Source of the DNA: Hyphomicrobiales bacterium
Lineage (GTDB): Bacteria; Pseudomonadota; Alphaproteobacteria; Rhizobiales; NORP267
Length of the DNA stretch: 64,000 bases
Direction: 5' to 3'
Assembly (NCBI GenBank): GCA_021775855.1
Contig: JAJFGZ010000002.1
Coordinates: 5,723 to 69,722, forward strand
Part shown: piece after piece, positions 15,127-22,559 of the stretch
Layout: each line of letters opens with the position of its first letter
How positions within the stretch are numbered: the first letter of the stretch is position 1
The notes under the pieces: generated by a model
Databases searched by the model: none
The model's input: the letters and a program-made list of their open reading frames with translations, nothing else
What the model was told of the DNA's origin: nothing
Program-made: the position numbers and the translations under genes

Positions 15127-15345
15127 TCAGTCCTGCGATTTCGTAAACAGCCGCTCGATCCTGGATATCAGGTAATCCGCAAAGGTGAGCAGCAGGAAGG
15201 ACACCAGGATCGCCGGGATGAATTTAAAGTTGGAGGCAGGGGTTCCCCTGATCTGTGTGCCGAGCAGGAGCCATATCTGATAACAGCCATAGGCCAGACC
15301 GGCCGTGATTACCAATGCGAGAATGCTGGATATGATTTTTTGCAT
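15127..15345 (-). CDS. Small two-TM membrane protein (last gene of the Rieske operon)
   Basis: 72 aa (MQKIISSILALVITAGLAYGCYQIWLLL...FIPAILVSFLLLTFADYLI). The ATG lies 2 nt after the upstream stop, and AAGGGTG is upstream. I recognise no family. Confidence 0.5.
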   Translation of the reverse strand: MQKIISSILALVITAGLAYGCYQIWLLLGTQIRGTPASNFKFIPAILVSFLLLTFADYLISRIERLFTKSQD

Positions 15346-15347
15346 GG

Positions 15348-16133
15348 CTAAAACACCCTTGCCTGTGAAACATCAACCTTGAATACGAGGATATCGTCGA
15401 GCCGCTCGATCTCGCCTTCAAGCTGAACCATAATTGCCACAAGGTCGTAAAATTCATCGGGCAGAGGACCGCCATTCTCATCGGCCAGCAAGAAGAACGA
15501 GGTCCCCTCCACTTCCCCGGTCGAGACAAAGACCGGGGGCACCCCGCCAATCAGACAAAGATTGGCGCAGGCCCGATGTGCTATCCCGGTGCCGGGACGC
15601 ATGGCGCCCCCATAGCATTTGCCGTCGCAGATCTCGCCCGACAACCGCCATCGCCCAAGGGATACCGGCGGGGCCGGGGTAAAAGCGCGCTGGAGATCCG
15701 TCAGGCCTTCGTCGGCCGGCACAAGCGCCTGTCCCCTGAGCTGGAGCATATCCATGTCGCCACGCGACAGAAAAAAGCCTGATGCATTGACAACTTGATC
15801 CCCCAGCTGAGCGGCCCGGTCCTGCAATCCAGCTTTTCCCGGCGCCGTCAGCATCAAGGTCCGTGGTTCCGGATGGCCTTCCGATGGCGCCGTTCTCAAA
15901 ACCGGGTAAGGCAGTTCTTGGACCACCCCCACAAATTGCTGCATATTGTTGCGCCCTCCGACAAAACGGCCATCACCGGGATCGCTGGTATTGCTGCCAA
16001 TCGCGAAGGACAGAGCCGCCATGCCGATAAGGATACCGAGCGTGGCCGCGAGCGAGAAGATGATCAGCGGCGCCTGGACGCGGTTAACATAGCCAACAAA
16101 AAAGGGTCGTTCCGGGGTGTGACTGGACATCAT
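15348..16133 (-). CDS. Membrane-anchored protein of unknown family with paired CxxxC motifs
   Basis: 261 aa. The start forms an ATGA overlap with the upstream gene at 16130-16133. There is one N-terminal TM helix (PLIIFSLAATLGILIGMAALSFAI). The soluble domain contains CDGKC and CANLC. Confidence 0.65.
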   Translation of the reverse strand: MMSSHTPERPFFVGYVNRVQAPLIIFSLAATLGILIGMAALSFAIGSNTSDPGDGRFVGGRNNMQQFVGVVQELPYPVLRTAPSEGHPEPRTLMLTAPGKAGLQDRAAQLGDQVVNASGFFLSRGDMDMLQLRGQALVPADEGLTDLQRAFTPAPPVSLGRWRLSGEICDGKCYGGAMRPGTGIAHRACANLCLIGGVPPVFVSTGEVEGTSFFLLADENGGPLPDEFYDLVAIMVQLEGEIERLDDILVFKVDVSQARVF

Positions 16134-17188
16134 GCAGCTCCTGGTACCTGGATGGGTTCAACGCGGGTTCCTGGCGCACAGGCTTGTGGGTCAAGCAGCA
16201 CCTGGTCGCCTTTCAACTTCAACCTGTAGGTCGCAATTTTCTCAGTAAACGGCGCCGGGGCACGGCCATCCTCGACCCGGTACTGGAATCCGTGCCAGGG
16301 ACAGGTCACGCAGCCATCGATGATCCGCCCCTCACCGAGCGGGCCGTTCTGGTGGGCGCAGACGTTCGATAGCGCGGATAATTTATTGCCGTGGCGGAAC
16401 ACCGCGACCCGCTCGTCGCCTTCCAGCGATACAATGACCGCACGATCCAGGGGAATGTCATCGACGGCACCGGCGATAACCCAGGAGGACGTATCATCGG
16501 TTTCCGCCGCTGCCCGGTCTTTTCGCCGCTCGGCTCGCCCTGCCAGGAAATGCAGCCCCGCCACCGCCATGCACGAAGTCACCACGACCATCGCAAAAAT
16601 GGGGTTGGCGGCTGCCTGAAGGTACCCAAGCGAGACGTGCAACACGATCAATGTATACGCCACGTAGACCGACATATGGATGGCTTTCCACACCCCAGGG
16701 GTGAGGAAATGCATCCAGAAATCGTGGCTTGTAACCGCCATGACCAGCAAAATCAGCAGAGCAAATACACCGAATAATTCGAAAGGAAACCCTAAAAATT
16801 GACCGAAACTGGTGTTGGCGCCCAGTACAGCCGCATATTTGTCGATCGAGCTGAATGAAAAATAGATGCTGATCACATATGTCGCGTGAACAAAGGCAAC
16901 AGCGCAGGTAATCACGCCAAAATGCCGTCGGTTATAGAGAAGAGGCAAGAAGCGGGTATCGAGACGCGCCAGCGGCCCTATACACAGGATCATGGTCAGC
17001 ATTAGAAATGCACACGTCCCAAATGCCTGAGCCTTGAAGATCGCGCCACTGACGCGGCGCGTAACTTCCTGAAAACTCGGTGTCAGCTCGACAAATATGA
17101 ACACATAGCCGAACACCATGATGAGCAGGATAAGATCGTAAATGATCTTGTTCGAATTCCAGGTAACCGGGGTGTATTTAACGCTCAT
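16130..17188 (-). CDS. Ferric-reductase-like (MsrQ/YedZ-type) six-TM domain fused to a C-terminal Rieske [2Fe-2S] domain
   Basis: The N-terminal ~210 aa is polytopic with conserved His in helices (FVHATYV, SHDFWMH, AIHMSVY, VLHVSLG). The C-terminus has CAH-x16-CPWH, encoded at 16292-16360. Confidence 0.8.
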   Translation of the reverse strand: MSVKYTPVTWNSNKIIYDLILLIMVFGYVFIFVELTPSFQEVTRRVSGAIFKAQAFGTCAFLMLTMILCIGPLARLDTRFLPLLYNRRHFGVITCAVAFVHATYVISIYFSFSSIDKYAAVLGANTSFGQFLGFPFELFGVFALLILLVMAVTSHDFWMHFLTPGVWKAIHMSVYVAYTLIVLHVSLGYLQAAANPIFAMVVVTSCMAVAGLHFLAGRAERRKDRAAAETDDTSSWVIAGAVDDIPLDRAVIVSLEGDERVAVFRHGNKLSALSNVCAHQNGPLGEGRIIDGCVTCPWHGFQYRVEDGRAPAPFTEKIATYRLKLKGDQVLLDPQACAPGTRVEPIQVPGAA

Positions 17189-17349
17189 TGGTCTGTCCCT
17201 CCGGCTTGCACCGGCGCTTCCAATAGCCTGGCCGGGCGTTCGATCGGGCCGTTCTGGCGGATAAACGTTGCCGCGACCAGGATGGCTGGTAGCAGGACGG
17301 CCAGCAAGGTCCAGATGCGGGCATGCGCGGTTCTATGACGGCGTTGCAT
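17185..17349 (-). CDS. 54-aa single-TM protein (not in the ORF track)
   Basis: My own translation gives MQRRHRTAHARIWTLLAVLLPAILVAATFIRQNGPIERPARLLEAPVQAGGTDQ*. GGGGGGAG lies upstream of ATG 17349. The stop forms an ATGA overlap with the start of the downstream gene at 17185-17188. Confidence 0.55.
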   Translation of the reverse strand: MQRRHRTAHARIWTLLAVLLPAILVAATFIRQNGPIERPARLLEAPVQAGGTDQ

Positions 17350-17353
17350 AATT

Positions 17354-17569
17354 CTACTCCCCCCGCTGTGTTTCGAGTTTGAGCCAACGCCAGAGAACCA
17401 GGGGCCACAACACGACGATGCCCGGTATCAAAAGCGCACGAAAGCCAAATGCCTGGTGCGAAGATGGGTCAATCCGGTCGATCCCGAACATCAGGAACGG
17501 CACAGAAACAGCCGCCCCGATATACCCGTAGATCTTCACGATTTCGATGATTTGAAGTGCGAGTTCCAA
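17354..17569 (-). CDS. 71-aa two-TM membrane protein
   Basis: Start is placed at TTG 17569, preceded by GGAGGG at 17575-17580. The track start at 17674 would overlap the upstream gene by 47 nt. Hydrophobic segments are IYGYIGAAVSVPFLMFGI and ALLIPGIVVLWPLVLW. Confidence 0.55.
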   Translation of the reverse strand: MELALQIIEIVKIYGYIGAAVSVPFLMFGIDRIDPSSHQAFGFRALLIPGIVVLWPLVLWRWLKLETQRGE

Positions 17570-17627: not shown

Positions 17628-19607
17628 TCAGACAAGGTCCGCGTCGGTAATAATCTCGACCAGCGCCGGGCCATCGTAGGCCAACGCCGCCTTCAGGGCT
17701 GGCTCAATCGCGACTGTCGCCGTGACTTTTGTTCCATGACCGCCGCACAGGCGGGCAAAAGCGGCGAATGACGGGTTGTGCAGGTTGGTTTCCCAGACCG
17801 GCCATTCACCGGCACGTTGTTCTTTCGATATTTTGCCAAGCTCTGAATTGTTGAGCAGGATGTGGGTAATGTCCATGCCGTATTTGACGGCCGTGGTGAA
17901 ATCCATCGGGTATTGACCGAAGCCGCCGTCGCCGGATATCGAGATCACCTTGCGGCCCTTATATTCGTCAAAATCCTGGGTTGCGGCCCAGGCACCCATG
18001 GCGGCTGGGAAACCGAATCCGATGGACCCCAGATATCCGGACATCAAGACCCGCTGGCCTTTTGTTTCGAAATACCGGCCGAATGAATACGTATTGTTGC
18101 CAACGTCCGCCGCGATAATTGCGTCGTCGGGACAAAGCTCACTCAGGTGCTTGAATATGGCAGCGGAATGAATCCCTTGCCCGCGTTCTTCCTGCAACCG
18201 GGAGGTTTTTTCATCGCGCCAGATGCGCCACCGTTCTACCAACTCCTTGATCTGATCGTCGGCGGCTTTTGGCAATGATAGCCGGGGCATGACCGCTTCG
18301 CAGAACGCCCCGATCTCGCCCCAGATTGGCAACTCCACGGGGTGAAACTTGCCAAGCTGCATGCGCTCGAAATCCACCTGGATGATCGGTTTCGAGCGCT
18401 CGATTCCGGTATGATTGGCGAACGACGATCCAAGCGCAATAATCAGATCCGCTTCGTTCATAAACCAACTCGCGACCGGCGTGCCGGATCGGCCCAAAAC
18501 ACCTGCGGCGTTCGGATGGGTGTCTGATATCAGCCCCTTGCCCTTGAACGTGGTCAGGACCGGAGCGCCCAGTTTCTCGGCCAATTCGATCACCGCAATC
18601 CGGGATTCAACCGCGCCGTGGCCAATGATGACGATGGGGCGCTTGGCGCTGTTGATCAATGTTGCTGCGCGGTCGAGATCGTCGGATGCCGGGATCACAA
18701 CGTGCCCACCAACCCGTCCGTCCGGGTTTCCGGCAGCGGCGGCACTCGGTTGGGTCTGGATATCGTCGGGAAAAATAAGGTGTGAGACATCGTGCTCCAG
18801 CAACGCCGTCTTGCAGGCAAGTGACATGAGTTCGGCATGATTGGAGGTGGACAGCACTGGCTGCGAGAACCGGGCAACGGCACCAAAGGCCGCGTGCAGA
18901 TCGATATCCTGGAAAGCGCCCGGACCAAATACCTGCGTTTGGACCTGGCCAGTGAGCGCCAATACCGGCGCGCGGTCGACCTTGGCGTCCCACAACCCGG
19001 TCATCAGGTTGGTGGCGCCCGGCCCGGCGATCGTCAGGCACGCCGCCGGTTTCCCGGTCAGTTTACCGTAGGCCGAGGCCGCGAAAGCCGCCGCGCCCTC
19101 GTGGCGCACGCCGATATAATCGAGCTCGTTATCGTTAGTGCGGCGGCGTATAGCATCCGACAGACCGAGGTTGGAATGCCCGACCATCCCGAAGACGCGC
19201 TTGACCCCCCAGTTGACCATGGTCTCCGCCATGACATCAGTCGTCGTTCGCTCGTGATCGGGTTCAGCCTCCAGCCCGACGAAAATTTCGCCATCACGTA
19301 TTTCGACGGGGTAGAGCTGCTGGCCAGAATCTTCATGACCGCCGGGAGGGGCACCGGTGAGCGGGTGAAAATCCCAGCCGTGCCACGGACACCGTATCCA
19401 GCATTCGCCATCAACACCGGTCTCAATCGAACCTTCGCCAAGCGGACCGCCCTGATGGGGGCAATGGTTGTTCATGGCGGCCCATTTGCCATCAAAATGC
19501 GACAGGCAGATCGATACGGTTCGTGCGGTCACGGTTTTGACCCGACCTTCCGGCAAGTCATCTTTGTGCCCGACACTTATCCATTCAATTTTCTTATCTA
19601 CCATCAT
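17628..19607 (-). CDS. N-terminal Rieske [2Fe-2S] domain fused to a thiamine-diphosphate enzyme (pyruvate oxidase/acetolactate synthase family)
   Basis: The Rieske motif CPH-x21-CPWH is encoded at 19380-19463. A TPP PYR domain follows (GVKRVFGMVGHSNLGLSDAI). The ThDP motif GDGGFGQYPMDFTTAVKYGMDITHILLNN is also present. Start is at ATG 19607 or 19604, after AGGGAAG. The track start at 19634 is a TTG. Confidence 0.85.
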   Translation of the reverse strand: MMVDKKIEWISVGHKDDLPEGRVKTVTARTVSICLSHFDGKWAAMNNHCPHQGGPLGEGSIETGVDGECWIRCPWHGWDFHPLTGAPPGGHEDSGQQLYPVEIRDGEIFVGLEAEPDHERTTTDVMAETMVNWGVKRVFGMVGHSNLGLSDAIRRRTNDNELDYIGVRHEGAAAFAASAYGKLTGKPAACLTIAGPGATNLMTGLWDAKVDRAPVLALTGQVQTQVFGPGAFQDIDLHAAFGAVARFSQPVLSTSNHAELMSLACKTALLEHDVSHLIFPDDIQTQPSAAAAGNPDGRVGGHVVIPASDDLDRAATLINSAKRPIVIIGHGAVESRIAVIELAEKLGAPVLTTFKGKGLISDTHPNAAGVLGRSGTPVASWFMNEADLIIALGSSFANHTGIERSKPIIQVDFERMQLGKFHPVELPIWGEIGAFCEAVMPRLSLPKAADDQIKELVERWRIWRDEKTSRLQEERGQGIHSAAIFKHLSELCPDDAIIAADVGNNTYSFGRYFETKGQRVLMSGYLGSIGFGFPAAMGAWAATQDFDEYKGRKVISISGDGGFGQYPMDFTTAVKYGMDITHILLNNSELGKISKEQRAGEWPVWETNLHNPSFAAFARLCGGHGTKVTATVAIEPALKAALAYDGPALVEIITDADLV

Positions 19608-19646
19608 CTTCCCTATCCCAGCATTGTCCCGCAACCAGCTACAGCT

Positions 19647-21257
19647 TTACGCGACGCCGCCGAACTGAATGCCGGACAATTCGGCCATGTCTTTTTTCCA
19701 GGTCGTCAAATCATCCGCATTGAAATTCGACAGATGATCGTGGCCGCACGCGCGCGCCATAACCTGCATCAGTTCGACGGAGGCTTCGAAAAAATTCTTG
19801 AGCTGGATTGCGGATTTTTCGACAACCAGGCGGCTGATCAGATGCGGTTTTTGCGACGCGATCCCGACCGGGCAATTATTGGTGTGGCAAGCCCGCATGG
19901 CGATGCAGCCGATCGCCTGCATCGCGGAATTGGAAACCGCGACCGCGTCGGCACCGAGCGCCATGGCCTTGATAAAATCGGCCGGTTTCCGCAACCCCCC
20001 GGTAATGACCAAGGTGATATTTCCGGGGCCATTCGTATCCAGATGCTGCCTTGCGCGGGCAAGGGCGGGGATCGTCGGCACCGATATATTGTCGCGAAAA
20101 ATAATCGGCGCCGCGCCAGTGCCACCACCGCGCCCGTCGAGGATGATGTAGTTGACACCGACCTCCAGTGCCGCGTCGATATCATTCTCGATATGCTGCG
20201 CGGATAACTTATACCCGATGGGGATACCCCCAGTGCGGTCGCGCACCTCGTCGGCAAAGTCCTTGATCTGGCTGACTTCGGTCCAGTCAGGAAAACGCGG
20301 TGGGGATATTGCGTCTTCGCCTTCGTTCAATCCGCGGACAGCAGCGATCTTGCCTTTGACCTTGGGACCCGGCAGATGCCCGCCGGTTCCGGTTTTGGCG
20401 CCCTGCCCACCCTTGAAATGGAACGCCTGGACTTTGGCCAACTTGTCCCAGTCGAACCCGAAGCGGGCAGATGCCAGTTCATAAAAATACCGGGAATTGG
20501 CCTGCTGCTCCTCGGGCAACATGCCGCCTTCGCCGGAGCAGATCCCGGTTCCTGCCAATTCGGCGCCGCGCGCCAGCGCCACCTTGGCTGGTTCCGAAAG
20601 CGCGCCGAAGCTCATGTCGGACACAAAAAGCGGGATATCGAGCTTCAGCGGTTTTTGCGCGTTGGGGCCGATCACGACATCGGTCGCGACTGCATCATTG
20701 TCTAGTAGAGGTGGAGTGGCAAGCTGTGCCGTGACGATCTGGATATCGTCCCAGTTGGGTAATTCGCCGCGTGGTACCCCCATGGCGTCGACCTTGCCGT
20801 GGTGACCGGTCTTGGATAGTCCGTCACGGGCGTATTGTTGGATCAGGCCGTTATAGGGCTCTTCCTCGGTCCCGTGGGAGGTGTCGGCGTAGAGGCCCAG
20901 ATAATCGTCGCGCTGGAACGGTTGAGGGTTTGCCTCGGCCCAGACGCCTATTTCATCTTCGTCGACGAGAATTTCACCCTTCTCGATCCACGACAAAAAT
21001 TTTGGCAACACCTCTTCATTGGCATATTCGGACACGCCGGTATCGAGGCGGTAATCCCAGTAATGCACGCCACAAATCAGGTTGTTGCCACGTACGAAAC
21101 CGTCTGACATGAGTGCACCGCGGTGCAGGCAACGTCCATAAAATACGGACACCTCTTCGTCGATCCGGACAACGACGAGGTCAACCTCGCCGACAAGCGC
21201 GTATTCCGGCTTCCGGTCTTTAAGATCATCAAATTTTGCAACTGACACTTTATTCAT
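19647..21257 (-). CDS. N-terminal Rieske [2Fe-2S] domain fused to a glutamate-synthase-type FMN/Fe-S domain (GltB domain 2-like)
   Basis: The Rieske motif CLH-x16-CGVH is encoded at 21063-21131. The GltS FMN-domain motifs are FHFKGGQGAKTGTGGHLPG and LDGRGGGTGAAP. The Cys cluster is C-x5-C-x4-C (GCIAMRACHTNNCPVGIASQ). Confidence 0.85.
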   Translation of the reverse strand: MNKVSVAKFDDLKDRKPEYALVGEVDLVVVRIDEEVSVFYGRCLHRGALMSDGFVRGNNLICGVHYWDYRLDTGVSEYANEEVLPKFLSWIEKGEILVDEDEIGVWAEANPQPFQRDDYLGLYADTSHGTEEEPYNGLIQQYARDGLSKTGHHGKVDAMGVPRGELPNWDDIQIVTAQLATPPLLDNDAVATDVVIGPNAQKPLKLDIPLFVSDMSFGALSEPAKVALARGAELAGTGICSGEGGMLPEEQQANSRYFYELASARFGFDWDKLAKVQAFHFKGGQGAKTGTGGHLPGPKVKGKIAAVRGLNEGEDAISPPRFPDWTEVSQIKDFADEVRDRTGGIPIGYKLSAQHIENDIDAALEVGVNYIILDGRGGGTGAAPIIFRDNISVPTIPALARARQHLDTNGPGNITLVITGGLRKPADFIKAMALGADAVAVSNSAMQAIGCIAMRACHTNNCPVGIASQKPHLISRLVVEKSAIQLKNFFEASVELMQVMARACGHDHLSNFNADDLTTWKKDMAELSGIQFGGVA

Positions 21258-21278: not shown

Positions 21279-22559
21279 TTATTCATTGATTAAAACTCCC
21301 ATATCCTCGACGGGAATCGTGATCAGAGGTTTTGCCGAGGATTCAACTTTCCTAGTCTCCGGGCAGTCGCCCATTAAGCGGACTTTCTCGGCGTACCATT
21401 TGGCGCCAGGTACAGCCGTCATGCCATGGAGCAAGGCGCTGATCCAAACCGCGTTGATGGCAATATTGATGACTTGGTCGGAAAACACCATCCCGATATC
21501 TTTCATGACCAGAAGCGCGAACAGGGCGGTTGCCAATCCGCGCGGGCCGAACCATCCGAAGAATAAACGGGTTACCGGAGCAGAATCGGTCTCGATCAGG
21601 GATATCCAGATCGCAACAGGGCGTACAACGAACAGACTGACCAGGATAAGCGCCAGAGTTCCGGGCGTGAGTTCCTGCAAAGCATCGGGGACAAGCGCCA
21701 AGCCAAGCAGGAAAAAAGCGCACCATGTGAGCATCTGTCCTTCGCTCTCCACAAACTCAAAAATAAACCGACACCGGCCGCGCACCATATTACCGAAGCA
21801 TAGCCCAGCGACAAAGGCAGATATAAATCCGTTGCCGCCAATCAAAGTTGCCCCGATATAGGCGATGCCGGCCAAGGCCAGCGCACCGATGCCTTCATAA
21901 ATTTCCGATGTAAATTGGCTGTCTTTAGAGATCAGCAGCAATTTTCCGCCAAGCAGGCCCACTGAGATTCCGGCGAGTGGGCCAAGCAGCAATTGTTGTG
22001 CACCAAACAAGGCCCAATCCAACGAGTCGTTGCTCATCGCCATGGCGGTCAAGCTCGCAAACAGCAGCACCGCTGGCAAGGCCAATCCGTCATTTAGACC
22101 ACTCTCGACAGTCAGCGCACGGCGGACCCGTTCGGGAACAATCGGGTTGGTTACGACCGCCTGCCCCAGCGCGGCATCAGTTGGCGCGAGAATGGCTGCG
22201 ATAAGTGCAACACCCACCAAAGGCCATCCCGGCAAAAACAGAATTGCAGCCAGGGTCCCCAATGCCACCGAGATCGGGAGCCCTATGGCGAGCATTCGCA
22301 CCGGCCATACGTGGCGCCTGCGCAGAGCATCCAGGTCGATCTGCGCGGCATCAAGGAACAGCAAGACGATCAGCGTGATCTCCGCAACCAGGTGGAGTCC
22401 CGCCTCCGCCTCCTCAGCTGGCAGAATATCCGTTAGAGAGACGAAATACCCGAGCAGGAGGAAAATCATCGGTGCCGTGACAATGGTGCTGGAAAGACGT
22501 TTCGCGATCATCGCAAAACCCAGTGTAAAAACACATAAAATTAGTATACCCAATAGCAT
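21279..22559 (-). CDS. Cation:proton antiporter (CPA1 / Na+/H+ exchanger family)
   Basis: 426-aa polytopic protein with the exchanger motif TVESGLNDGLALP. A gap of only 21 nt separates it from the downstream Rieske-GltS gene on the same strand. Confidence 0.85.
   Translation of the reverse strand: MLLGILILCVFTLGFAMIAKRLSSTIVTAPMIFLLLGYFVSLTDILPAEEAEAGLHLVAEITLIVLLFLDAAQIDLDALRRRHVWPVRMLAIGLPISVALGTLAAILFLPGWPLVGVALIAAILAPTDAALGQAVVTNPIVPERVRRALTVESGLNDGLALPAVLLFASLTAMAMSNDSLDWALFGAQQLLLGPLAGISVGLLGGKLLLISKDSQFTSEIYEGIGALALAGIAYIGATLIGGNGFISAFVAGLCFGNMVRGRCRFIFEFVESEGQMLTWCAFFLLGLALVPDALQELTPGTLALILVSLFVVRPVAIWISLIETDSAPVTRLFFGWFGPRGLATALFALLVMKDIGMVFSDQVINIAINAVWISALLHGMTAVPGAKWYAEKVRLMGDCPETRKVESSAKPLITIPVEDMGVLINE

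Follow-up and report, generated by a model that had tools for sequence, protein, structure and literature searches.

A Rieske domain fused to a PoxB-like thiamine-diphosphate enzyme and encoded in an operon with other Rieske-bearing redox proteins

Background

PoxB is a peripheral membrane flavoenzyme that passes electrons from pyruvate to quinone by way of a lipid-activated C-terminal tail. Together with PQO (structures 9EV3-9EV6), PoxB (3EY9/3EYA) provides the closest described counterpart of the protein presented here, with which both share the three-domain ThDP fold, the catalytic Glu, the FQ and GDG..NN motifs and the flavin-side loops; PoxB is nonetheless only 29% identical to our protein and lacks its N-terminal Rieske domain. 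L. plantarum POX (1POW/1POX) has the same ThDP/FAD oxidative decarboxylase fold (TMq 0.74), and hands its electrons to O2 with the formation of acetyl phosphate, whereas the protein described below carries a fused, protein-bound Fe-S acceptor. An analogy in outline is offered by PFOR/OFOR, in which oxidative decarboxylation on ThDP is likewise coupled to one-electron exit via protein-bound Fe-S clusters, but the domain organisation of those enzymes is unrelated and their clusters are [4Fe-4S], as opposed to a [2Fe-2S] Rieske cluster and a probable flavin intermediate; in our protein there is also no evidence of CoA dependence.

Two other groups of proteins are relevant to the locus. The Rieske ferredoxins CarAc (1VCK), BphF (1FQT) and T4MOC, and mouse RFESD (3D89), share the fold and the CxH...CxxH ligands of the Rieske domain considered here. 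In oxygenase systems, electrons normally pass from one Rieske centre to another, but there the ferredoxins are free-standing and reduced by NAD(P)H reductases, whereas here the carrier is fused to a ThDP enzyme, and the operon contains no oxygenase gene. NOX and MsrQ/YedZ share with a membrane protein of the operon a six-TM haem-b domain in which His pairs are conserved, and a cytoplasmic module for electron entry at the C-terminus. The operon protein differs from them in having a Rieske domain in place of the FAD/NADPH dehydrogenase domain, in that its proposed donors are separate Rieske-fused ThDP and FMN enzymes, and in that its periplasmic partner is an unannotated two-barrel protein, not MsrP. 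The bare FRD+Rieske architecture has already been listed (PMC3591440). The full-text literature searched yielded no account of a Rieske- or rubredoxin-ThDP fusion, of a Rieske-GltS-like protein or of the operon, in agreement with the initial annotation, which, made without database searches, knew of no characterised ThDP enzyme with a Rieske domain.

The fusion is a single polypeptide

The window analysed is a stretch of 64,000 nucleotides from a Hyphomicrobiales bacterium (GenBank assembly GCA_021775855.1, contig JAJFGZ010000002.1, positions 5,723 to 69,722), and all coordinates are counted from its first letter. One unbroken minus-strand open reading frame (17628..19634 in the ORF list) encodes the fusion, which has the following features:

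17628..19607 (-), Rieske-ThDP fusion gene (single ORF, homologue lengths, four Pfam domains)
19269..19586 (-), Rieske [2Fe-2S] ferredoxin-type domain, aa 8-113 (Pfam, invariant ligands, solved relatives)
18897..19247 (-), ThDP Pyr domain, TPP_enzyme_N, with the catalytic Glu170 in R-H-E (Pfam, invariant RHE)
18294..18677 (-), middle domain of FAD/nucleotide-binding type, TPP_enzyme_M (Pfam, loops retained)
17652..18107 (-), ThDP PP domain, TPP_enzyme_C, with GDG-x25-NN (Pfam)

The Rieske domain is recognised by PF00355 with an E-value of 1.2e-15 (57.6 bits against a cut-off of 20.3) and also by the NirD-like family Rieske_2 (29.1 bits), and it is joined by a linker of about 8 aa to a ThDP core with E-values of 1.4e-33 (TPP_enzyme_N), 6.4e-35 (TPP_enzyme_M) and 2.9e-31 (TPP_enzyme_C). 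In the numbering of the 659-aa product, the cluster ligands are C49, H51, C73 and H76, arranged as C49-P-H51-x21-C73-P-W-H76, and the ThDP motif runs from G559-D560-G561 to N587-N588. The R-H-E170 motif is invariant and aligns with the RHE of PoxB that contains E50, and conservation extends to FQ(D/E), DVG, GDG..NN and the Glu at the position of PoxB E469. The match to four domains together with these motifs is far above chance expectation. An AF2 model of the fusion is confident, the Rieske domain and short linker included (pLDDT 89.7, pTM 0.84).

The gene gives a product of 659 aa from the ATG at 19607 or of 658 aa from the ATG at 19604. We favour one of these two starts over the TTG at 19634, because the homologues are 657-660 aa long and an identical database protein (P0001) has been called at 659 aa; the TTG is ruled out by the homologue lengths. 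The next gene upstream encodes a different protein and has its end at 19647, leaving 39 nt to the start of the fusion gene. One polypeptide thus consists of a Rieske domain and a PoxB-like ThDP enzyme, and the fusion is genuine. The initial annotation had proposed a Rieske domain fused to a PoxB/acetolactate-synthase-type ThDP enzyme, and this held, with four Pfam domains in one polypeptide, as did its motifs, CPH-x21-CPWH exactly (DNA 19463..19380) and GDG-x25-NN. It had left the start ambiguous with the TTG listed first, which held only in part, the two ATG codons being favoured and the TTG having failed. It had also allowed that the Rieske region might prove to be a separate upstream gene, which would have refuted it; this was checked and is ruled out by the single ORF and by the conservation of the fusion in homologues.

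Conservation and distribution

Conservation was assessed in the 120 best database homologues, which are 78-100% identical to the fusion and all of which have the same four-domain architecture. The four Rieske ligands are invariant (120/120), and an extra conserved cysteine, Cys69, lies four residues before C73. Mean pairwise identity in this sample is 84% for the Rieske domain, 85% for Pyr, 72% for the middle domain and 80% for PP; judged by the ligands and by these identities, selection on the Rieske domain is as strong as on the catalytic domains. Close relatives exist in at least 572 species-level genomes, mostly of marine Alphaproteobacteria, and the carriers include marine Roseibium/Labrenzia, Stappia, Tateyamaria, Ruegeria and Pelagibius.

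Kinship of the ThDP core and the question of a flavin

Similarity of sequence and fold shows that the ThDP core is PoxB/PQO-like, as the comparison with PoxB, ALS, Xsc and related enzymes recommended in the initial annotation bore out by profiles, PDB matches and fold; a pyruvate-dependent activity is only inferred. The four top-ranking NCBIfam models are all pyruvate oxidase/dehydrogenase models, with bit scores (cut-offs in brackets) of 385.9 for PRK08611 (742), 339.1 for PRK06457 (788), 315.1 for PRK09124 (792) and 311.9 for PRK06546 (893). The ALS models trail these by about 100 bits, with 289.7 for PRK08322 (509), 286.1 for TIGR00118 (538.35) and 249.1 for the AlsS model PRK08617 (510). 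The Xsc models NF005713 and TIGR03457 reach 226.6 (620) and 203 (676.4). The top PDB match by phmmer is E. coli PoxB (243 bits), Foldseek returns PoxB 3EYA (TMt 0.92, rmsd 2.6) and C. glutamicum PQO 9EV6 (TMt 0.90), and blastp scores fall from PoxB (231 bits) through IlvI (181) and Gcl (121) to Oxc (113). Since the fusion lies below every curated NCBIfam cut-off, its substrate cannot be transferred by homology, and with the PoxB-type anchor also absent, an identity as PoxB, ALS, Xsc or Gcl is ruled out. No gene for an ALS small regulatory subunit lies next to the fusion gene, and Pfam finds no PFOR-family domain in the fusion, only TPP_enzyme_N/M/C and the Rieske families.

FAD is most likely present in the fusion, but this is inferred from loop conservation only, without biochemical data. 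The middle-domain loops GVLG-RSGT, GSSF and IQVD align with PoxB G249-G255, G273-F276 and D292, which we take to be FAD contacts, and the flavin-side loops are kept as they are in PoxB, IlvI and Gcl, unlike Oxc, which carries a deletion at this point. The initial annotation had suggested a check of the FAD-binding residues of the middle domain, and the outcome is supportive solely at the level of these loops. PoxB F465, the Phe that bridges ThDP and flavin, is replaced by Lys in the Rieske-ThDP clade and by Met, Glu or Asn in relatives. In the comparison with POX, the Glu four residues after the F479-equivalent is conserved, while F479 itself is replaced.

Type of Rieske domain and exchange of carriers

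The CPHQGG and CPWHG motifs of the fusion are without the extra cysteines of the bc1/b6f type (the loop-bridging disulfide pair, CxHxGC...CxCH), and the nearest solved structures to the domain are RFESD 3D89, CarAc, BphF and T4MOC. From the absence of the disulfide Cys pair and from these nearest relatives, we infer that the domain is of the low-potential type; cluster incorporation is likewise inferred.

Aligned with PoxB, the fusion reaches only residue 527 of the 572 in PoxB, and it ends about 5-7 residues past the core. Because it ends where the PoxB core ends, it has no C-terminal anchor of the PoxB type (~40 aa), and the short end is common to all members of the clade. Among the 11 nearest full-length 50%-cluster representatives, with core identities of at least 37%, none has a C-terminal tail and nine have an N-terminal carrier, which is a Rieske domain in four and a rubredoxin in five. 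One of the 11, P0122, has Fer4_19, 2×CDGSH and Rieske domains in front of the same core. In more distant relatives the N-extension is absent and C-tails of 30-45 aa are frequent. Among cluster representatives, the PoxB tail tends to be missing where a carrier has been gained. This exchange of carriers at one position speaks for the N-terminal domain as the way out for electrons.

The operon and its conservation

The fusion gene belongs to a minus-strand operon of eight genes, tightly packed with 4-nt overlaps, a context that the initial annotation did not pick up. The other seven genes, in order of transcription, are:

21279..22559 (-), CPA-type Na+/H+ exchanger, the operon's first gene (Pfam PF00999, 2.2e-32)
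19647..21257 (-), Rieske–GltS-like FMN/3Fe-4S protein (Pfam Glu_synthase 6.6e-88, Rieske 8.7e-12)
17354..17569 (-), small 2-TM membrane protein, 71 aa (TTG 17569 after GGAGGG; conserved in 37 loci)
17185..17349 (-), small 1-TM protein, 54 aa (ORF list; conserved in 22 loci)
16130..17188 (-), ferric-reductase-domain protein with a C-terminal Rieske domain (Pfam Ferric_reduct 1.1e-11, Rieske 3.9e-15)
15348..16133 (-), unannotated 261-aa protein (no Pfam hit)
15127..15345 (-), small 2-TM protein, 72 aa, the operon's last gene (ORF list)

The GltS-like partner has Rieske ligands C43, H45, C62 and H65 and keeps the 3Fe-4S motif C451-x5-C457-x4-C462, which aligns with GltS C1102/C1108/C1113; because it has no glutaminase or GltD-like module, it needs an external electron donor or acceptor. 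The literature searched yielded no residue-level work on the substrate site of GltS, and no substrate is assigned to the partner. The ferric-reductase-domain protein has 6 TM segments, bis-heme-type His89/101/171/184 and Rieske ligands C277, H279, C296 and H299; its His and Cys residues are invariant in 23 homologues, and topology prediction places its Rieske domain on the cytoplasmic side. This domain is the best match within the operon to the Rieske domain of the fusion (34% identity, E 4.5e-15), and at 25% identity the Rieske domain of the GltS-like protein stands furthest apart among the three. The 261-aa protein is predicted to be periplasmic, with an N-terminal TM anchor and two OB-like beta-barrels (AF2 pLDDT 86.5), and has invariant C173, C189, C193, H186 and M178. 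All of its 2037 homologues are named 'hypothetical', and no PDB fold match was found at E<1e-3, the best being a weak OB-fold likeness (E 8.7e-3), so that the protein is left without an assigned function.

Partners were counted in 57 loci with flanks of at least 4.5 kb. The GltS-like partner is present in 47 of these (82%), its gene separated from the ThDP gene by a median of about 32 nt between aligned ends and sometimes overlapping it. The membrane cassette is present in 30 (53%) and not adjacent in the remaining 47%; it occurs in two gene orders, and its strand is that of the ThDP gene everywhere except in one locus. The pair of GltS-like and ThDP genes occurs without the cassette in 20 of the 57 loci, and in 10 loci the cassette is inserted between the two. 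No conserved partners were found in the neighbourhoods of distant Rieske- or rubredoxin-ThDP family members, and we therefore regard the operon partnership as limited to the alphaproteobacterial clade.

Proposed function and rival explanations

The reading we prefer, as somewhat more likely than not (probability about 0.55), is that the fusion is a soluble PoxB/PQO-like 2-oxoacid dehydrogenase with its Rieske domain as the electron exit, feeding the Rieske partners of the operon; the FAD, the substrate, the direction of flow and the destination are all inferred. A 2-oxoacid, by default guess pyruvate, would be decarboxylated on ThDP, and the two electrons of the hydroxyalkyl-ThDP would pass to the flavin and then leave singly via the Rieske cluster, the N-terminal low-potential domain thereby replacing the lost membrane-binding tail of PoxB as the way out. 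From the fusion's cluster, electrons would go to the Rieske domains of its operon partners. The foremost candidate is the cytoplasmic Rieske domain of the six-helix bis-heme ferric-reductase-domain protein, which may take them into the membrane or through it and deliver them to quinone or to the periplasmic 261-aa protein, and the co-translated Rieske-GltS-like FMN/3Fe-4S enzyme would be a second plug-in on the same Rieske wire. Against this reading weigh the lack of biochemical data, the replacement of the bridging Phe of PoxB, the 47% of full-flank loci in which the cassette is not next to the gene, the absence of all partners around distant family members, and scores too low to transfer a substrate. 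The initial annotation had suggested that the cluster could serve as a built-in electron acceptor, and this is now supported, though not proven, by four independent lines, since the anchor is lost clade-wide, carriers are swapped N-terminally in sister clades, conservation of the Rieske domain matches that of the catalytic domains and two operon partners are Rieske-fused.

It is also conceivable, if unlikely, that the fusion is the dedicated donor of the GltS-like protein, so that pyruvate oxidation would power a reductive amination, either of 2-oxoglutarate with NH3 to glutamate or of a comparable kind, that requires neither NAD(P)H nor ATP, with the membrane cassette as an optional overflow or entry point. 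The two genes are indeed the tightest pair, they persist without the cassette, and the GltS-like partner retains the FMN domain and 3Fe-4S cysteines of GltS but is without a glutaminase or a GltD-like donor module. Against this, the substrate of the GltS-like protein is unknown, its Rieske domain shows the lowest similarity among the three, a neighbour of this kind is absent next to distant Rieske- and rubredoxin-ThDP enzymes, and the insertion of the cassette between both genes suggests a three-way system. We consider it very unlikely that the Rieske domain instead serves regulation, by sensing redox state or iron, or a purely structural purpose, in the manner of NirD-like domains, and that the attached core is a non-redox carboligase or decarboxylase whose flavin, if any, is vestigial, as in acetohydroxyacid synthase. 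In favour of that explanation are the Rieske_2 match, the small gap of only ~100 bits to the ALS models and the absence of the bridging Phe of PoxB; it is opposed by the invariance of the ligands in 120/120 homologues, by the correlation of tail loss with carrier gain, by the rubredoxin or CDGSH/Fer4_19 chain of relatives, which are electron carriers and not sensors, and by operon partners that are redox proteins with the same Rieske domain.

The lowest-rated alternative, which we also hold to be very improbable, is an inward flow, in which the quinol pool would reduce the haem protein and its Rieske domain and so support reductive reactions of the soluble enzymes, for example reductive carboxylation or the keeping of a flavin in its reduced state. 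The direction of flow cannot be read from sequence, and GltS-type FMN domains normally work reductively, both of which leave room for this possibility. On the other side, oxidation by the ThDP-flavin chemistry of PoxB/POX is strongly exergonic, no reverse reaction is, to our knowledge, known in that family, and ferric-reductase-domain proteins typically carry electrons outward from the cytoplasmic side (PMC3591440).

A bolder reading remains possible, though less likely than not, namely a 'Rieske-wired' system in which the ThDP and GltS-like enzymes, soluble dehydrogenases whose chemistries are unrelated, dock onto a Rieske-socketed, NOX/MsrQ-like bis-heme membrane protein or exchange electrons directly. 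In one form, electrons from the oxidation of 2-oxoacids and amino acids would cross the membrane to the periplasmic two-barrel protein with its Cys, His and Met residues; in the other, the pair would constitute a pyruvate-driven glutamate synthase needing neither NAD(P)H nor ATP. Either form, if true, would mean that marine Alphaproteobacteria possess a new module for respiration or assimilation. Should the preferred reading be correct, fused one-electron carriers (Rieske, rubredoxin and CDGSH/Fer4_19 chains) would have replaced the quinone-tail solution of PoxB, and the fusion would be an oxygen-tolerant, flavin-based counterpart of pyruvate:ferredoxin oxidoreductase and the first member of the ALS/POX superfamily of ThDP enzymes in which an iron-sulfur centre is built in. 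It would also provide a natural system for two- to one-electron conversion among ThDP, flavin and a Rieske cluster. The operon ties the fusion to a ferric-reductase-domain haem protein and to a periplasmic family of more than 2000 unannotated members, and so gives a testable entry point to an undescribed electron route in abundant marine bacteria.

Minor genes and signals of the locus

Apart from three tRNAs, no riboswitch or other RNA regulator was found in the window, and scans for promoters and terminators gave results at chance level. Pfam searches with the small ORFs and with alternative downstream genes returned nothing except a weak DUF5996 match. The exchanger lies upstream of the gene pair in 33 of 86 loci, or in 32 of 79 by clustering. 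The 72-aa gene shows weak conservation at its position in 5 loci, and other loci have an equivalent by position. The last 4 nt of the 54-aa gene are shared with the beginning of the next gene, and in some genomes the 71-aa and 54-aa genes are fused as one 125-aa protein.

The fused gene and its product

The Rieske-ThDP gene lies in one uninterrupted frame (17628..19634, minus strand), in which Pfam recognizes Rieske PF00355 (E 1.2e-15; 57.6 bits, gathering cut-off 20.3), TPP_enzyme_N (E 1.4e-33), TPP_enzyme_M (E 6.4e-35) and TPP_enzyme_C (E 2.9e-31). This frame and its four domains confirm the fusion in a single ORF that had been proposed in the initial annotation, and the Rieske ligand motif, C49-P-H51-x21-C73-P-W-H76 in the 659-aa numbering, falls at DNA 19463..19380, exactly where that annotation had placed CPH-x21-CPWH (19380-19463). 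The ThDP motif is G559-D560-G561-x25-N587-N588. A separate upstream gene for the Rieske region, which would have refuted the fusion, is ruled out, since the upstream gene stops at 19647 and encodes a different protein; the Rieske domain, with its ligand set intact, and the PoxB-like ThDP core are one polypeptide. The best 120 matches in a database of 5.8 billion proteins (78-100% identity) are 657-660 aa long and carry the identical Pfam set in 120/120 cases, under generic labels such as "thiamine pyrophosphate-binding protein", "Rieske 2Fe-2S domain-containing protein" and the JGI label "pyruvate oxidase". Because of these lengths, and because P0001, a database protein identical to the Rieske-ThDP enzyme, uses ATG 19607, the start left ambiguous between TTG 19634, ATG 19607 and ATG 19604 is narrowed to the two ATGs, and the TTG is excluded.

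Throughout a 120-member family alignment the four cluster ligands and an extra Cys69 are invariant. Mean pairwise identity is 84% in the Rieske domain, as against 85%, 72% and 80% in the Pyr, middle and PP domains (64% in the eight-residue linker), and these regional values show that selection on the fused Rieske domain is as strong as on the catalytic core. An antisense ORF of 456 aa (18837-20207, plus strand) crosses the boundary between the Rieske-ThDP and Rieske-GltS-like genes; nothing supports it as a gene, and it is probably a by-product of composition.

Relationship of the core to PoxB

The first four NCBIfam ranks are held by pyruvate oxidase/dehydrogenase models (PRK08611, 385.9 bits; PRK06457, 339.1; PoxB PRK09124, 315.1; PRK06546, 311.9), followed by ALS and Xsc models, and the enzyme scores far below every curated cut-off among these PoxB, POX, ALS and Xsc models. 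Among solved structures, the top sequence match is E. coli PoxB (243 bits; query 121-654 on chain 4-527 of 572), and among E. coli paralogues PoxB scores highest against the core (231 bits, 29% identity), ahead of IlvI (181), Gcl (121) and Oxc (113). An AlphaFold2 model built from 38 sequences is confident (pLDDT 89.7, pTM 0.84, Rieske blocks 77-93); by TM-score, the folds nearest to it are 3EYA, a PoxB truncated at its C-terminus (TMt 0.92, rmsd 2.6 A), and the pyruvate:quinone oxidoreductase of C. glutamicum (9EV6, TMt 0.90).

Retained in the core are the cofactor-activating Glu (R-H-E170), a Glu at the aligned position of PoxB E469, the FQ(D/E) motif, DVG and GDG..NN. The middle-domain loops GVLG-RSGT, GSSF and IQVD align with PoxB G249-G255, G273-F276 and D292, which we take to be FAD contacts. 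The flavin binders IlvI and Gcl share these flavin-side loops, unlike ADP-binding Oxc, which has a deletion there; this supports retention of FAD, although loop conservation is not proof. At F465, the Phe between ThDP and flavin, the enzyme departs from PoxB in having Lys, and relatives have Met, Glu or Asn there. It also lacks the C-terminal membrane-binding segment of about 40 residues found in PoxB/PQO, since the protein ends a few residues past the core. With scores below the curated thresholds, no PoxB anchor and no PFOR domains, it belongs to neither the PoxB nor the PFOR group; as far as function can be inferred, it would work like a hybrid of PoxB's ThDP/flavin chemistry with PFOR's Fe-S exit.

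Exchange of N-terminal carriers

HMMER was run exhaustively against 1.84 billion representatives of 50%-identity clusters to collect relatives; Pfam scans and a tally of N- and C-terminal extensions followed. The C-terminal tail is absent from all 11 near-full-length representatives with at least 37% core identity, and 9 of the 11 have an N-terminal metal-centre domain, which is a Rieske domain in four (P0121, P0122, P0123, P0125) and rubredoxin in five (P0127, P0130, P0131, P0139, P0145; e.g., locus L004 1911-3722). With 37-48% core identity, the rubredoxin forms are closer than any other non-Rieske relatives; they are stand-alone genes without conserved partners, as are the distant Rieske-ThDP genes. 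In the metagenomic P0122 (873 aa; locus L003 8001-10622), Fer4_19, two CDGSH [2Fe-2S] and a Rieske domain precede the same ThDP core, so that its Pfam domains describe a wire of four clusters attached to a PoxB-like enzyme, with electron transfer along it inferred. No relative at or below 36% identity carries an N-terminal extension, and PoxB-type C-terminal tails of 30-45 residues occur in many of them. The N-terminal carriers thus interchange among relatives. If the N-terminal domain is an electron outlet, one small carrier would be expected to replace another there and the quinone-coupling tail to be lost, as observed; that the domain is such an outlet is an inference, for which carrier swapping is the strongest argument. 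The Rieske domain itself lacks the bc1-type disulfide cysteines and has RFESD (3D89), CarAc, BphF and T4MOC as its nearest solved relatives, from which we infer a low-potential ferredoxin type.

Some proteins from the search (P0144, P0160, P0161, P0190, P0191, P0205, P0224, P0225, P0231, P0268), at ~1,080-1,190 aa, are longer than a single ThDP enzyme; P0144, the only one of this set scanned with Pfam, is two complete ThDP enzymes in tandem.

A conserved operon of Rieske-fused proteins

Eight minus-strand genes are tightly packed here, and the Rieske-ThDP gene is the third.

Genes of the operon
21279-22559, minus: gene 1, CPA-type Na+/H+ exchanger
19647-21257, minus: gene 2, Rieske-GltS-like protein (Pfam Glu_synthase 6.6e-88; Rieske ligands C43/H45/C62/H65)
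17628..19634, minus: gene 3, Rieske-ThDP ORF
17354-17569, minus: gene 4, 71-aa two-TM protein (start TTG 17569, GGAGGG site ahead)
17185-17349, minus: gene 5, 54-aa one-TM protein
16130-17188, minus: gene 6, ferric-reductase-domain protein with C-terminal Rieske (FRD-Rieske)
15348-16133, minus: gene 7, unannotated 261-aa protein
15127-15345, minus: gene 8, 72-aa two-TM protein

Overlaps of 4 nt join the 54-aa gene to the FRD-Rieske gene and the latter to the 261-aa gene. The three small membrane-protein genes (71, 54 and 72 aa) escape a standard ORF cut-off, and in some genomes (loci L013 and L015) a single 125-aa gene takes the place of the first two. The GltS-like protein keeps the 3Fe-4S cysteine motif (C451-x5-C457-x4-C462, aligned with C1102/C1108/C1113, the 3Fe-4S ligands in Azospirillum GltS) but lacks both a glutaminase and a GltD-like partner. 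In the FRD-Rieske protein, six helices are predicted, and His89/His101 and His171/His184, invariant in the third and fifth, form the bis-heme pattern of the FRD superfamily. Its Rieske ligands (C277/H279/C296/H299) are also invariant, and the domain is predicted to be cytoplasmic because positive charges follow helix 6; it stands where NOX enzymes instead have an NADPH/FAD module. Of the other two Rieske domains in the window, this is the one to which that of the ThDP enzyme is most similar (34% identity, E 4.5e-15); with that of the GltS-like protein, the ThDP enzyme's domain shares 25% identity.

The 261-aa gene always directly follows the FRD-Rieske gene with the 4-nt overlap. Its family comprises 2037 database clusters, none with a Pfam match and every one labelled "hypothetical"; an N-terminal anchor helix and two OB-like barrels toward the periplasm are predicted (pLDDT 86.5), a comparison of this model with PDB folds gave no significant match, and Cys173, Cys189, Cys193, His186 and Met178 are invariant. 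It is possible that this protein is the periplasmic end of an electron path.

Where both flanks reach at least 4.5 kb (57 related loci), the most constant neighbour is the GltS-like gene (47/57, 82%), usually immediately upstream of the ThDP gene with a median of ~32 nt between aligned ends and overlap in some loci. The membrane cassette (the FRD-Rieske gene with its small membrane-protein and 261-aa neighbours) occurs in 30/57 (53%), both occur in 27 and neither in 7. The 27 are ordered GltS-ThDP-cassette (16), GltS-cassette-ThDP (10) or otherwise (1), and in every locus but one the components share the ThDP gene's strand. In ~40% of loci (33/86, or 32/79 by clustering) the Na+/H+ exchanger is the first gene of the cluster. 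The cassette is also found by itself in Geminicoccus (L087) and Kiloniella (L089). The operon, with its two further Rieske-fused redox proteins, is thus conserved. In cassette-less loci (L001 12017-13555 and about 10 others), the ThDP gene is often followed by genes for a 283-aa protein with a weak DUF5996 match and a 226-aa membrane protein, possibly an alternative partner pair.

Proposed mechanism and alternatives

The initial reading, a PoxB-type ThDP enzyme with a fused Rieske acceptor, is supported and extended, with the acceptor role inferred in the absence of biochemistry. The same qualification applies to the oxidative decarboxylation, substrate, FAD content, electron direction and acceptor proposed here. 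The enzyme would oxidatively decarboxylate a small 2-oxoacid, pyruvate being the default guess, because POX-type active-site residues are kept, although this is not established. Hydroxyalkyl-ThDP would give its electrons to FAD, from which they would exit one at a time via the Rieske cluster, with another Rieske domain as acceptor; in Rieske oxygenase systems, transfer between Rieske centres is the usual mode. As the main sink we favour the membrane FRD-Rieske protein, so that the system may be a split NOX/MsrQ-like conduit with Rieske-plugged dehydrogenases in place of the NADPH module, and with the GltS-like enzyme as a second plug-in enzyme.

It also remains possible, and is not excluded by the data, that the ThDP enzyme hands its electrons straight to the GltS-like enzyme, so that pyruvate would drive a reductive amination. 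Much less likely are a regulatory or structural Rieske domain and an inward flow of electrons, both of which we regard as improbable; a sensor or scaffold, in particular, is hard to square with the carrier swap and the loss of the tail.

In the full-text literature searched, no account was found of a ThDP enzyme fused to Rieske or rubredoxin, of a Rieske-GltS-like protein (a fusion itself undescribed there) or of this operon; PMC3591440 catalogues only the FRD+Rieske architecture, without function. The PoxB-like enzyme with its Rieske domain lies inside a conserved Rieske-linked operon that this literature does not describe.

Distribution

Relatives are encoded in at least 572 stretches in a scan of 185,579 species (one genome per species); the best 80 are 73-83% identical. 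Most are from marine Alphaproteobacteria (Roseibium/Labrenzia, Stappia, Tateyamaria, Ruegeria, Roseobacter, Litoreibacter, and Hyphomicrobiales and Rhodospirillales MAGs), and a few are from Betaproteobacteria such as Rhodoferax. Because these betaproteobacterial copies (L029, L074, L086), at 75-77% identity, keep the GltS-like neighbour, they suggest that the module may move as a unit, possibly by horizontal transfer.
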